Shown: positions 2,051 through 56,335 of the stretch, piece after piece
Numbering within the stretch: the stretch's first letter is position 1
Layout: each line of letters begins with the position of its first letter
Position numbers and translations under genes: made by a program
The notes under the pieces: generated by a model
Database searches by the model: none
Seen by the model: the letters and a program-made list of their open reading frames with translations, nothing else
What the model was told of the DNA's origin: nothing
Assembly: GCA_951406725.2 (NCBI GenBank)
Contig: OX597838.1
Coordinates: forward strand, 10,912,001-10,976,000
Direction of reading: 5' to 3'
From: Octopus vulgaris
Taxonomy: Eukaryota
DNA length: 64,000 nucleotides

Positions 2051-2625
2051 ATACACACACACACACACACAAATAAACATCCATGTATAAATACCGTTAT
2101 ATACACACATTTCCTTATCTTCTCCACTCTACTAACAATTGTTTTAATAATCTCAAATGGCTCTAAATATACAGGAAGAAAACAAACCAAGCAAAAAAAC
2201 CCAAAAACAAAATACAAAATGTATATAAAATGCCTAACAAAAAATAGCATAATAGATAAAAAAAATTATGAGGGGAAAAAAAAAATCAAACTGCAAAGAA
2301 AACCATAAAAAGGAAAAAAAATATTAAGTAAAACACAAAACAAAACGTAAACTAAATGAAAACATTAACAGATCAATAACAACAGGAACAAGATTGAAAA
2401 ACAGCAAAAAACCAGCTAAATTACAGCCATAACAGTATGTCTCGTAGAATCAAGAAAGAAATCAAGGTCTTAGAATTTAGAGGAAATCAATTCCAGATTC
2501 TTTCTCTCCAGCTGTTTAAGAAACGGCAAATGAAAAAGAAGCATGTTACTGCTTTTATTTGTTGTTGTTGTTGCTGCTGCTGTTGTTTTGTTGTCGTGGT
2601 GTTGTAGTGAGTAAACATTATGAAT

Positions 2626-3189
2626 CGGCGAGCTGGCAGAAATGTTAGCACGCCGGGCGAAATGCGTAGCCATATTTCGTCTGCCGTTACGTTCTGAGCT
2701 CAAATTCCGCCAAGGTCGACTTTGCCTTTCATCCTTTCGGGGTCGATAAATTAAGTACCAGTTACGCACTGGGGTCGATGTAATCGACTTAATACCTATG
2801 TCTGTCCTTGTTTGTCCCCTCTGTGTTTAGCCCCTTGTGGGTAGTAAAGAAATAGGTATTTCGTCTGCCGTTACGTTCTGAATTCAAATTCGGCCAAGGT
2901 CGACTTTGCCTTTCATCCTTTCGGGGTCGATAAATTAAGTACCAGTTACGCACTGGGGTCGATGTAATCGACTTAATACCTATGTCTGTCCTTGTTTGTC
3001 CCCTCTGTGGGTAGTAAAGAAATAGGTATTTCGTCTGCCGTTACGTTCTGAGTTCAAATTCCGCCGAGGTCGACTTTGCCTTTCATCCTTTCGGGGGTCG
3101 ATAAATTAAGTACCAGTTACGCACTGGGGTCGATATTTGTCCTTGTTTGTCCCCTCTGTGTTTAGCCCCTTGTGGGTAGTAAAGAAATA
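2626..3189 (+). mobile_element. SINE family A, head plus three tandem units
   Basis: tRNA-like head (box A-like tggcagaaa, box B g(a)gttcaaattc); units rejoin at aaagaaata|ggtatttcgtctgccg; flanking duplication attatgaatcg. Confidence 0.9.
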
Positions 3190-3219
3190 ATTATGAATCG
3201 CTTCTGTTTTAATTTCATT

Positions 3220-3420
3220 CATGTGGAGGCAATCTGCAGGCCAGACGAGGCCTTGTGGTAGCTCCTCACTGGCACCAGGTGGGCTGGACACGATTAAGGG
3301 AGATCTCCAGAGGCTGGACATCACTTGGAGGATGCAAAGCAGATGGCAAGAGGACACTGATGGTCAACAATGGGAAAGCACAGGTGAACCTGACTGGCTC
3401 TACATGTGGGGACCACTAAC
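3220..3420 (+). mobile_element. Degenerate LINE (RTE-like) C-terminal remnant
   Basis: RPCG...LDTIKGDLQRLDIT resembles the RTE RPRGRP..W.D.IK.DL end. Confidence 0.4.
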
Positions 3421-3637
3421 CTGGGATATTATTATAATAATAATGAAATTATTGTATACAGTGCTCAGGTGCACTACAACAAAAGACAAAGTCGACGTCA
3501 GCGGAATTTGAACTTGGAAGGTAGCGATGGACGAAATACCGCCTAGCGTTTTGCCCAGCGTGCTAACGATTCTGCCAGCTCGCCGACTTAATCCCAGCCC
3601 CATCAAGCAAAAGCACAAAGCAAGCAAACAAGCATGT

Positions 3638-3957
3638 AAAGGAATGTGGCCAAGTGTTTATGGTATCTGGCTCATGACCAGAAGGTCATGAGTTCAATAC
3701 CTGGTGGTGGTGTGTTGTGTCCTTGAGCAAGACACTTTATTTCACGTTGCTCCAGTCCACTCAGCTGACAAAAACCTGTAATTCAAAAGAGTCAGCCTAG
3801 TCCAATTCAGAGTCATGTTGAATCTCCTCCCTGAAAACTACATTAATGGTACATGTGTCTGTGGAGTACTCAGCCACTTGTATATTAATTTCACAAGCAG
3901 GCTATTCTCTTGACCAGATCACCTGGAACCCTCACTGACATAACCAACAGAGTGTCA
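3638..3957 (+). mobile_element. SINE family C (tRNA head, gtccttgagcaagacact core), CpG-depleted
   Basis: Shares its 3' body with 29262-29645, 32880-33170 and 52218-52610. Confidence 0.8.
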
Positions 3958-4239
3958 TTCATGCCTCAGATATACTATGAGATTCCCAGCTACAGCCTTC
4001 CACCCTCATATAATGTGGGGTAGCCATGTACCTCCTCTGTAGCAAGACACCTCTGTCCCTCCCTCAATCACACTTTAGCCTTTCAACACCTCCCTTCGTC
4101 GAATTCTCCCACCCAACTTAACCAGGGGAGATTTTCCCCTCTGTTTTTTTTTCTGACACTGAGCTCACTGGGTCCTGTCAAACCATCCAACCCATATCCG
4201 CATGGAACATGGATGTTAAATGATGATGATGATGATAAT

Positions 4240-4661
4240 ACTCTTTACTCTCTTTACTCTTTTACTTGTTTCAGTCATTTGACTGCGGCCATGCTGGAAC
4301 ACCGCCTTTAATCGAGCAACTCGACCCCGGGACTTATTCTTTTTGTCAGCCCAGTACTTATTCTATCGGTCTCTTTTTGCCGAACTGCTAAGTGACGGGG
4401 ACGTAAACACACCAGCATCGGTCGTCAGGCAATGCTAGGGGAACAAACACAGACACACAAACACACACAAATACATATATATATATATACATATATACGA
4501 CGGGCTTCTTTCAGTTTCCGTCTACCAAATCCACTCACAAGGCATTGGTCAGCCCGGGGCTATAGCAGAAGACACTTGCCCAAGATGCCACGCAGTGGGA
4601 CTGAACCCGGAACCATGAGGTAGGTTAGCAAGCTACTTACCACACAGCCACTCCTGCGCCT
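4240..4661 (-). mobile_element. SINE family B (tRNA head, ttgggcaagtgtctt core, internal TA/TG run)
   Basis: Near-identical to copies at 21090, 30730, 48085, 53482 and 56098; gtaaaagag-repeat tail. Confidence 0.9.
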
Positions 4662-4680
4662 TACTGATGACTTTCTTTAA

Positions 4681-4901
4681 CCCTTTAGTATTCAGATTAT
4701 TTTGTCAAGTGTAATGCTTATTTATTGATGTTGACTTAAATAACTCATGCATTATCTTGTAGCTTTGAGATTTTGATGATGTTATTGTTTATTTTTAGCA
4801 TGGCATTGTAGGATTAATGTAAGAGGCTGGATCCAGTCAGTTTGAATGTAAAACAGGTAGAATATTTTGGGCCGGATATGGCTGGTTTAAATGCCAAAGG
4901 G
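4681..4901. mobile_element. piggyBac-like MITE
   Basis: TTAA|CCCTTTAG...AAAGGG|TTAC; same body at 10438 and 11545. Confidence 0.7.
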
Positions 4902-4914
4902 TTACGGGTCAGAT

Positions 4915-5145
4915 AAAGATCCTCTTTGGAGTAAAAGACTAGCAAATTTGTTTATGGAAGACCAGCAGTTGCTCATTCGTACCAGCTTCCCCTCTGTATG
5001 GGACTGTTGTTATCCAAGGGAAAGGCTGGTACAGTTTGGCACCAGTGACGTCACAACTCATTTCTGCAGTTGAGTGAACTGGAGCTGAGTGAAATGAAGA
5101 GTCATGCTCAAGGACCTAACACTCTAACTACTGAGCCGTGAACCT
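4915..5145 (-). mobile_element. SINE family D copy
   Basis: Reverse complement of 28945-29248 (gaaatgagttgtga.gtca.tggtgccaa, tggtcttccataaacaa). Confidence 0.6.
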
Positions 5146-5435
5146 TCCTTAAGGGTCATTATTTATATTTAATGAAGTTGATTGAATGAAATGATTGGTT
5201 CCAGTTTGAAATACAGTTTGGCAGTGTCATACAAGTAAATTGTGATACTTGGAGAGGAAGAAAAGATGAGGTGGTGCTGTGATGTTCATGCCTTTCTCTA
5301 GCAATGTTTGCTAGGTTGTTGAAGCAGAAATCCAACTGAAAACCCGAAAGCCAAATTCACACATACATAATGTGCACACTCCTATACTTATATAACATGT
5401 ATACGCATAAATGAATAATGAATGTCAAGTGATTA

Positions 5436-55000: not shown

Positions 55001-55034
<34 letters not shown>

Positions 55035-55112
55035 TCCCGGGTTGATTCGGGGTTAACCACAGTAAATAAGGTACTCAATACATAGCAGAGTAAAATTAAT
55101 TTATTATATAGA

Positions 55113-55215
55113 AGGAGCTTCTACAGGACTAGAACTGTTTCATTCAAGAGAAATCATCAGGAAGCTTCCTGATGATTTCTCTTGAATGAAACAGTTCTAG
55201 TCCTGTAGAAGCTCC

Positions 55216-55216
<1 letters not shown>
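55113..55216. repeat. Perfect 104-bp palindrome
   Basis: 52-bp arms are exact reverse complements; centre AAGCTT. Confidence 0.95.
55159..55216 (+). ncRNA. Type I hammerhead ribozyme motif (mirror copy on the minus strand, 55113-55170)
   Basis: agcttc-CTGATGA(55169)-t-ttc-tctt-gaa-t-GAAA-cag-ttctagtc-ct-GTA(55205-55207)-gaagct. Confidence 0.7.
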
Positions 55217-55248
<32 letters not shown>

Positions 55249-55256
<8 letters not shown>

Positions 55257-55432
55257 TACATTAAAAGGCTTCCAATAAAGAAGCAAGTGCTAGATACACA
55301 AAGAGGGGATAAATTCGTGATTAGCTGAGATGGTAAACGTTTTTGATTTTCTTTCCATTTCATGAATTTATCCCCTCTTTGTGTATCTAGCACTTGCTTC
55401 TTTATTGGAAGCCTTTTAATGTACTTATATAT
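55249..55432. repeat. Inverted repeat, ~70-bp arms and ~40-bp spacer, in (TA)n
   Basis: ataagtacattaaaagg...ggggataaattc / gaatttatcccc...ccttttaatgtacttat. Confidence 0.92.
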
Positions 55433-55547
55433 CAATAACGTATAGTCTAATTACTAATTCGTCTTTTGTGCTAGGTCACTGGTAATAATAATTTATTTTT
55501 ATTACCCTTTTTACTATGTTTTAAATATATATATATATATATATATA

Positions 55548-55705
55548 CTTTATTTTAAGCAGCAGAAAATTCAACAAAAACTGTTACTCTGAGTTTCTCG
55601 TTGCCGTTCATCAGACAGTTTTTTCTAGCAAAAACTGTCTGATGAACGGCAACGAGAAACTCAGAGTAACAGTTTTTGTTGAATTTTCTGCTGCTTAAAA
55701 TAAAG
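55548..55705. repeat. 158-bp palindrome with one mismatched pair
   Basis: Centre CTAG at 55625-55628. Confidence 0.95.
55630..55677 (+). ncRNA. Minimal type I hammerhead ribozyme motif (mirror copy on the minus strand, 55576-55623)
   Basis: aaaaactgt-CTGATGA-a-cg-GCAA-cg-a-GAAAC-tc-a-ga-GTA-acagttttt; 9-bp stem I, GNRA loop II, palindromic stem III. Confidence 0.75.
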
Positions 55706-55774
55706 CATATTACTCTACCACTGGTATTTGAGTACTCTTTTTTCCACCTTGTTTCACATTTATGTGTTTACTCC

Positions 55775-55829
<55 letters not shown>

Positions 55830-55834
<5 letters not shown>

Positions 55835-56272
55835 TTCGACGGGCTTCCTTCAGTTTCCGTCTACCAAATCCACTCACAAGGCTTTGGTCGGCCCGAAGCT
55901 ATAGTAGAAGACACTAGCCCAAGATGCCACGCAGTGGGACTGAACCCGGAACCATGTAGTTAGTAAGCAAGCTACTTACCACACAGCCACTCCCCCGCCT
56001 GTTTAAGTGGGGTAATAAATATTGCCTCTTGGTAATTAATACTGGCTCAGCCGCTAATATATATATTTCTTCACTAATGTATGCCAAGTGAGACATATAG
56101 GCACAGGAGTGGCTGTGTGGTAAGTAGCTTGCTAACAAACCACATGGTTCCGGGTTCAGTCCCACTGCGTGGCATCTTGGGCAAGTGTCTTCAGCTATAG
56201 CCCCGGGCCAACCAATGCCTTGTGAGTGGATTTGGTAGACGGAAACTGAAAGAAGCCTGTCGTATATATGTG

Positions 56273-56335
<63 letters not shown>

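Follow-up and report, generated by a model that had tools for sequence, protein, structure and literature searches.

The window analysed here is a 64-kb stretch (64,000 nucleotides) of the Octopus vulgaris genome, in which positions 55548-55705 are their own reverse complement at 156 of 158 positions. Only positions 55624 and 55629, flanking a central CTAG (55625-55628), are left unpaired. The sequence-only reading of this DNA had described a 158-bp palindrome with a one-sided tail (55706-55777) running into (TA)n, and this is what we find; both flanks of the insertion consist of (TA)n, which would mask any target-site duplication. Folded as RNA, the palindrome reaches -118 kcal/mol (z = -25.9), and just two non-simple palindromes with perfect arms of at least 18 bases occur within the window, which together exclude a chance origin. 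Element positions are counted backwards from the last base of the tail (-1, window 55777). This places the tail start at -72, the GUA cut site at -110, the CTGATGA core at -139 and CTAG at -153. The locus contains the following features:

55033..55216, minus strand: nearby stub from a second family, serving as a comparison, with a left-hand tail and AGCT as its axis
55525..55547: left part of the (TA)n target
55548..55623, minus strand: tail-less inverted arm, element -73 to about -148 (among the matches listed, 72 of 73 inverted arms have their outer end at -66 to -82)
55574..55623, minus strand: hammerhead motif in mirror image, with its CTGATGA core read downwards from 55614 and its GUA site at 55585
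55623..55629: head-to-head junction TTCTAGC with its centre CTAG at 55625-55628, within the -150 to -157 stop zone
55623..55777, plus strand: tailed arm, element -155 to -1, matching the repeat that precedes intact ORFs at all but 1 of 152 bases
55628..55679, plus strand: minimal type I hammerhead motif, called from the motif and its match to the published Hydra-2_aMil hammerhead
55628-55638/55669-55679, plus strand: hammerhead stem I, 11 bp including G-U
55639-55645, plus strand: hammerhead core, CTGATGA at 55639
55659-55667, plus strand: palindromic stem III ACTC-A-GAGT, predicted cut after 55668
55706..55777, plus strand: one-sided tail of 72 bases, which lies 66 bases before the ATG of the ORF in full-length copies
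55778..55835: right part of the (TA)n target

Perfect palindromes can arise from sequencing chimeras, and an assembly or read fold-back artefact therefore has to be considered. However, the two flanks are unrelated, only one side has the tail, the outer end keeps its position in the 72 of 73 listed loci given above, and the arms of older copies have diverged. We regard the chance of an artefact as negligible. At the junction, six T precede CTAG, as they do in one sister copy (L115), an arrangement compatible with joining at a short overlap.

Other repeats share the neighbourhood. Between the two hammerhead palindromes lies a third inverted repeat (55252-55524) with arms of about 70 bases, a 40-base spacer and a right-hand tail running into (TA)n. 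Neither CTGANGA nor CCGANGA occurs on either of its strands, and it probably represents a third family, as a stub that ends short of the ribozyme. Positions 55810-56289 hold two head-to-head SINE-like copies with 191-base arms that are 91% alike and a 98-base spacer; this repeat recurs in many of the fetched loci. Stubs of different subfamilies or families lie within hundreds of bases of each other at other (TA)n-rich spots (L048/L049, L189, L038), as they do in the window.

The hammerhead motif and its predicted folding

The motifs listed by the sequence-only reading (CTGATGA, CG-GCAA-CG, GAAA, ACTC-A-GAGT and a GUA site) are found as described on both strands. Its perfect stem I is real in the window copy, where pairing extends over 11 bp with a G-U, although this perfection is private to that copy. 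It depends on a T at 55673 that is absent from all 94 arms of full-length copies and from all 100 tail-selected copies among the matches listed, most of which have A or G there. The window copy has C3 U4 G5 A6 N7 G8 A9, G12 A13 A14, A15.1-U16.1 and H17, together with the palindromic stem III. Stem II consists of only 2 bp with a GCAA loop, and is closed by A.A rather than the usual G10.1-C11.1. That pair is not found: across 75 arms the position opposite the 10.1 A is occupied by A in 41, G in 15, T in 15 and C in 4. Variants shared among these 75 arms fall at positions 4, 7, loop II, 11.1 and loop III, and U4C is present in 33 of them; in the available text of PMC3088659, a U4C hammerhead has lowered but not abolished activity in vitro. 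Since the shared changes lie mostly at free hammerhead positions, they suggest selection on the fold in the parent element and not in the stubs. An Rfam search returned no hammerhead match at the gathering score or at E<=10, and only hairpin-like miRNA models. The ribozyme call rests on the motif and on the Hydra-2_aMil match.

For the isolated motif as a monomer, the computed hammerhead fold (-9.9 kcal/mol) is weaker than an inactive fold (-14.6 kcal/mol), and the stem III duplex is computed at -7.4 kcal/mol. The earlier suggestion that stem III is of the dimer type agrees with the computed pairing, and the isolated motif could pair stem III as a dimer. In a transcript of the palindrome, whichever its direction, the antisense arm comes first and the predicted hairpin reaches about -137 kcal/mol, with the core bases unpaired at a predicted probability of at most 0.001 in both transcripts. 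The stub is predicted to be inert, a dead hairpin with a buried ribozyme, because it also lacks upstream promoter DNA and RNA beyond the tail.

The parent element and its insertions

Searching the genome for a 22-base tail pattern gives 5,814 exact matches, and the reversed control gives 0. Among the first 100 of the 5,814 matches, palindromes of 3.4 to 4.4 kb have the same layout, with arms that extend into an ORF encoding a reverse transcriptase (RT) and an endonuclease; in the listed matches this layout spans palindromes from 60 bases to 4.4 kb, the longest of which hold the RT ORF. A protein search recovered many open frames of 727 codons, and an RT and endonuclease ORF of 711/712 amino acids is present in all 40 of the fetched long-frame copies. 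It starts 66 bases after the tail in the 39 copies measured. The full-length set numbers 39 copies after one (L158), in which no upstream repeat was detected, was left out. In the window, an 18-codon frame starts at an ATG inside the hammerhead core (55642-55698); in a full-length element it would form an upstream ORF within the 5' leader. The tailed arm in the window matches the repeat of the autonomous element at 151 of 152 bases. Upstream and downstream repeats differ by 0.6% within an element and by 1.4% between elements (23 copies).

The encoded protein has RWK in 40 of 40 ORFs, DKT in place of DKG in 40 of 40 and YRDDG in 39 of 40. The linker CxCx5C is found in 23 of the 40, with C to F in 15, C to S in one and no match in one. 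CRLC (CxxC) and CRH (CxH) lie near the ORF end, as read in one copy (L148), and VVY...YTG lies near the C-terminus with no cysteine between VVY and YTG, that is, without CCHH cysteines in the GIY-YIG core. A Pfam search of the ORF gave no match and a PDB sequence search nothing useful; Atlas look-alikes of about 700 amino acids stood at 0.98-0.99, and GIY-YIG-bearing clusters at 0.97. A single ORF, RWK, DKT for DKG, CxCx5C, and CxxC with CxH are the marks of the Hydra clade of Penelope-like elements (PLEs) as described in the available text of PMC8557442. The hammerhead in the pLTR and insertion into (TA)n are both present here, as in that clade. The unit of about 3.4 kb, with a 1.1-kb 3' UTR, exceeds the size of Hydra-clade elements, which are generally <3 kb (PMC8557442), a tendency and no strict criterion. 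The palindrome in the window is almost certainly the 3'-end stub of a young, new Hydra-clade PLE family, an assignment based on motifs, with the reference proteins compared by eye.

The phenylalanine that replaces the second CxCx5C cysteine in 15 of the 40 intact ORFs (L147-L186) implies either that the linker is dispensable or that a defective sublineage is being mobilised.

The first DNA search was biased to copies that cover the query, and axis statistics were therefore taken from the tail-pattern set only, that is, from the first 100 of the 5,814 matches, all of which lie in the first 55 Mb of one contig. This yielded 96 usable insertions after leaving out a decayed copy (L046), a recombinant (L052) and a tail-to-tail pair (L072a/b). 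Arm ends were curated by hand, and those beyond -1700 are approximate or lower bounds. Among these listed matches an inverted arm is detectable in 73 of the 96 insertions; it is tail-less in 72 of the 73, and the outer end of the tail-less arm lies at -66 to -82 in 72 of the 73. Of 21 full-length copies that have an inverted arm, 20 combine an arm ending at -1 with one ending at about -68. The layout agrees with that published for EN+ PLEs, in which an inverted 5'-truncated copy stands beside a direct copy with a one-sided tail (PMC8557442 and PMC3846280, in their available parts), and dual hammerheads on opposite strands were already noted in 2014.

The sequence-only reading had proposed a class of non-autonomous palindromic ribozyme retroelements, and had asked whether the axis is fixed or random across copies. 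It is neither. The axis falls exactly on CTAG in 6 of the 59 short two-armed copies among the matches listed, which is not a fixed position, and the wall of stops described below is not random; the neighbouring family behaves similarly. A self-propagating palindromic element, active in both directions around a fixed axis, would account for the 320 arms genome-wide that have an exact CTAG junction, and for the double presence of the core motif in the 19 of 59 short two-armed copies (matches listed) in which both arms reach -144. Non-coding retrozymes do derive from PLEs, as the available text of 10.64898/2026.07.22.740005 describes. However, the few exact CTAG axes are spread over three sequence subfamilies, each of which matches long copies; the CTAG axis therefore arises repeatedly. 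Moreover, the stub has no sequence of its own, at 1 base in 152 from the autonomous repeat, the layout is continuous up to ORF-bearing palindromes, both transcripts are predicted to bury the core, and arms in the junction list are single or head-to-head without head-to-tail arrays. The proposed class is not supported by these observations, and we consider such an element very improbable. The identity of the stub as a non-LTR retrozyme was likewise rejected, given the single or head-to-head arms in the junction list and a sequence that belongs to a coding element.

The stop zone before the ribozyme

Arms tend to end in a narrow zone just upstream of stem I. In the tail-selected matches listed, 49 of the 79 arms that reach -150 stop by -157, whereas none of the 33 upstream repeats of full-length copies stops in -150 to -157 (p = 6e-11). 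Per base, the stop rate is 0.001 close to the tail, increases to 0.023 between -140 and -149, peaks at 0.11 between -150 and -157, and drops again to 0.008 between -158 and -199 and to 0.002 between -200 and -499. Short palindromes are abundant at -163 to -172, yet the stop rate is low there. Genome-wide, 3,558 exact arms reach -149, 2,015 reach -156 and 1,638 reach -159; a control pattern reaching -178, not nested with the others, still finds 1,037, so that arm loss persists upstream and the genome-wide contrast is only about threefold per base. The two arms of an insertion agree with each other: over 73 insertions both are short in 59, both long in 10 and discordant in 4 (p = 5e-9). There is no pile-up at the ribozyme cut, near which (-107 to -112) only 2 of 169 arms end. 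The copied template was therefore uncut.

The stop falls at CCA(-156)TTCT. The initiator consensus is YYANWYY, which this sequence fits. No conserved TATA box lies upstream of the stop across the subfamilies of this family; the consensus of the coral element Hydra-2_Amil, read by eye, has TATATAA and CCATT shortly before stem I. The stop zone just before the hammerhead likely marks the start of the element RNA. We infer a start at about A(-156), one base outside the window copy.

A different cause of the stop zone would be a 3' splice acceptor or a structural block to the RT at the foot of stem I, with no transcription start. Both families have a pyrimidine-rich sequence and AG directly before stem I, and the intron of the D. 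virilis Penelope ends at the 5' end of helix I (PMC4209133, available text). However, 2-6 bases preceding the AG are retained at the junctions, beyond which lies (TA)n or the partner arm and no shared exon; the oldest subfamily has TTAAC and lacks AG, and in full-length copies this sequence is crossed with no stop (0 of 33). We find this explanation quite improbable. A splice joint at -150 was not seen in four contig-only sequencing runs, which cannot show starts and were not used as evidence.

The neighbouring stub offers a comparison with the same geometry. The two palindromes had been called unrelated, which holds at the DNA level (best BLAST match 16 nt, E 0.46); as an element, the neighbouring family is probably also Hydra-type, its ORF being 37-49% identical. 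Its tail has 2,860 genome matches. The stop in its stubs falls on AGCT at the foot of stem I; long copies run on, one of them into a Hydra-type ORF. A TATAAA box lies 29 bases upstream of the stop. The junction thus falls just upstream of the ribozyme in two families, which bears out the earlier suggestion of a reproducible mechanism. In a long neighbouring-family insertion (L278), positions 2554-5251 of the reverse-complemented locus hold an 899-codon frame between the arms, with GLKF, DKG, YLDD, CX4CxxC and GIY-YIG, which by these motifs we take to be Neptune-like. It represents either a nested insertion or a capture.

In L1, an untemplated extra G is a sign that the RT copied the mRNA cap (PMC11702581 and PMC9341517, available parts). 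The native base before the stop of the neighbouring family is T, and G is found there in 80 of the 100 matches listed, in a test that by design excludes T at that base and a preceding G. These matches give 90 distinct junctions, 38 of which cannot be explained by the element sequence; 33 of the 38 have G, one of which (L320) is really element-templated. Some extra G directly follow (TA)n, and 20 of 25 partner arms have C as its complement. In the family of the window palindrome, G accounts for 30 of 100 non-C bases before A(-156) among the matches listed. With A-preceded junctions set aside, there are 14 G and 18 A, besides 68 AT-axis palindromes; six of the eight junctions classed as other have G, mostly in mutated partner arms. 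Single clear cases exist (L228, L243). In this family an extra G does not stand apart from overlap at the junctions.

Proposed insertion by two cDNAs and comparison with known systems

How inverted and tandem repeats of PLEs form, which strand serves as template and what the hammerhead does are stated to be open in the available parts of PMC8557442, PMC3846280 and PMC11167929. The best overall explanation of the present data, and in our judgement a probable one, is that two cDNAs, each primed by the target, extend to the 5' end of an uncut sense RNA, run off it and are then joined. From the genomic footprints we infer the following steps. An uncut sense transcript, likely capped, would start at about A(-156) and offer its 5' pLTR-ORF junction. 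On the model of the Anolis element PAc, reverse transcription would then be primed from both ends of the cut (TA)n target, with one cDNA beginning at each boundary of the tail (-1 and about -73). Both cDNAs would reach the RNA 5' end just upstream of the hammerhead. They may then be trimmed, anneal at CTAG, AT or overlaps of 1-3 bases (AGCT in the neighbouring family) and be joined head to head; trimming and annealing at such short self-complementary words would place the axis just before stem I. Biochemical work on PAc shows that it cuts both strands of AT-rich DNA and that reverse transcription starts at two sites bounding the tail, requires RNA downstream of these sites and uses uncut RNA in vitro (PMC11167929, available text).

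Alternatively, a short palindrome (CTAG, AT) at or near the 3' end of a single cDNA could let it fold back and self-prime the inverted arm, in which case the stop zone could still be the RNA start. The arms lie within 5 bases of each other in 23 of the 59 short two-armed copies listed, the 320 exact CTAG-axis arms and the common AT-axis palindromes fit such priming, and the two arms agree in their variant at a stem I site in all of 34 copies; the rare T of the window likewise lies in both arms. Self-priming has been argued for the Adineta elements, there on an antisense template (PMC3846280, available text). However, the arms differ by at least 20 bases in 19 of the same 59 listed copies, the tail-less arm being the longer in 16 and the tailed arm in 3, and either arm may be longer in full-length copies. 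This inequality favours two cDNAs over one fold-back. The two tail-bounding start sites of PAc (PMC11167929) also speak against self-priming, and the sense-strand extra G of the neighbouring family points to a sense template and not to an antisense one. We regard self-priming as unlikely.

With joining of two cDNAs as the preferred explanation of the stubs, long and partial-tandem copies would come from a second template that has no 5' end at this position. This could be a circle, cut by the hammerhead and ligated, or a tandem RNA from read-through. The higher likeness of repeats within an element (0.6% as against 1.4%) fits a circle; tandem RNA fits the long copies equally. That hammerhead cleavage and ligation produce a circle is a proposal from 2014 (PMC4209133, available text). 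We tentatively suggest two RNA pools, an idea to which we give somewhat less than even credence: capped linear RNA would yield stubs resembling 'strong-stop' products by twin priming, and the hammerhead-cut, ligated circle would yield long or partial-tandem copies by rolling-circle copying.

Taken by itself, the locus is an ordinary dead stub; its sister copies are an unusually clear footprint of how insertions are made. A search of the literature outside subscription journals found no paper on a fixed 5' stop, a run-off origin or an extra G in PLE insertions. If the stop point is the RNA start, it would show how Hydra-type Penelope elements are copied. If the two-pool model is true, the PLE hammerhead gains a job, the choice between sense and antisense templating is settled, stub junctions map the transcription start to the base, and the abundant ribozyme palindromes of such genomes are a record of the element cycle. 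A young family with dozens of intact ORFs and thousands of stubs gives base-precise predictions: transcription should begin at about -156 and cDNA priming at -1 and about -73, the cut site should be free of stops, and full-length copies should lack the stop zone.

The closest relatives are the C-terminal EN+ PLEs of the Hydra clade (PMC8557442, available text), such as Hydra-1_Obim and Hydra-2_Amil, with which the element shares the single ORF, RWK, DKT, CxCx5C, CxxC and CxH, as well as (TA)n targets, an inverted 5'-truncated copy and a one-sided tail. Its hammerhead has the same stem I (CTGT/ACAG), core and stem III (ACTC-N-GAGT) as that of Hydra-2_aMil. Hydra-1_Obim is a different family, whose protein and hammerhead differ when compared by eye. 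Unlike the clade as described there, the tail is 72 bases long rather than 30-40, stem II has only 2 bp, and the unit of about 3.4 kb with its 1.1-kb 3' UTR contrasts with 'generally <3 kb'. Most insertions here are stubs of at most 157 bases with a sharp 5' limit, whereas the available text describes 5'-truncation only.

The PAc/Poseidon element of Anolis (PMC11167929, available text) is similar in that two RT starts bound a tail downstream of the hammerhead, the target is AT-rich and uncut RNA is a substrate. Its tail lies inside the ORF and the work was done in vitro, whereas here the tail lies 66 bases upstream of the ATG and genomic copies indicate where copying ends. The pLTR insertions of the Adineta vaga Penelope (PMC3846280, available text) are also head-to-head, with junction palindromes and a tail on one side, and the TATA and initiator-like motifs of that pLTR are a further likeness. 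That paper favours antisense self-priming, whereas our data speak for two cDNAs copied from sense RNA that was probably capped. Animal non-LTR retrozymes (10.64898/2026.07.22.740005, available text) are likewise non-coding, carry a type I hammerhead and are related to PLE pLTRs, but they form tandem units and families of their own, in contrast to a head-to-head stub without sequence of its own. Finally, L1 twin priming (PMC11702581 and PMC9341517, available parts) resembles the proposed process in that the second strand primes a second cDNA, a cap-derived G is added and joints form at microhomology. L1 twin priming inverts non-overlapping parts, whereas here both cDNAs would copy nearly the same stretch and so give rise to a palindrome.
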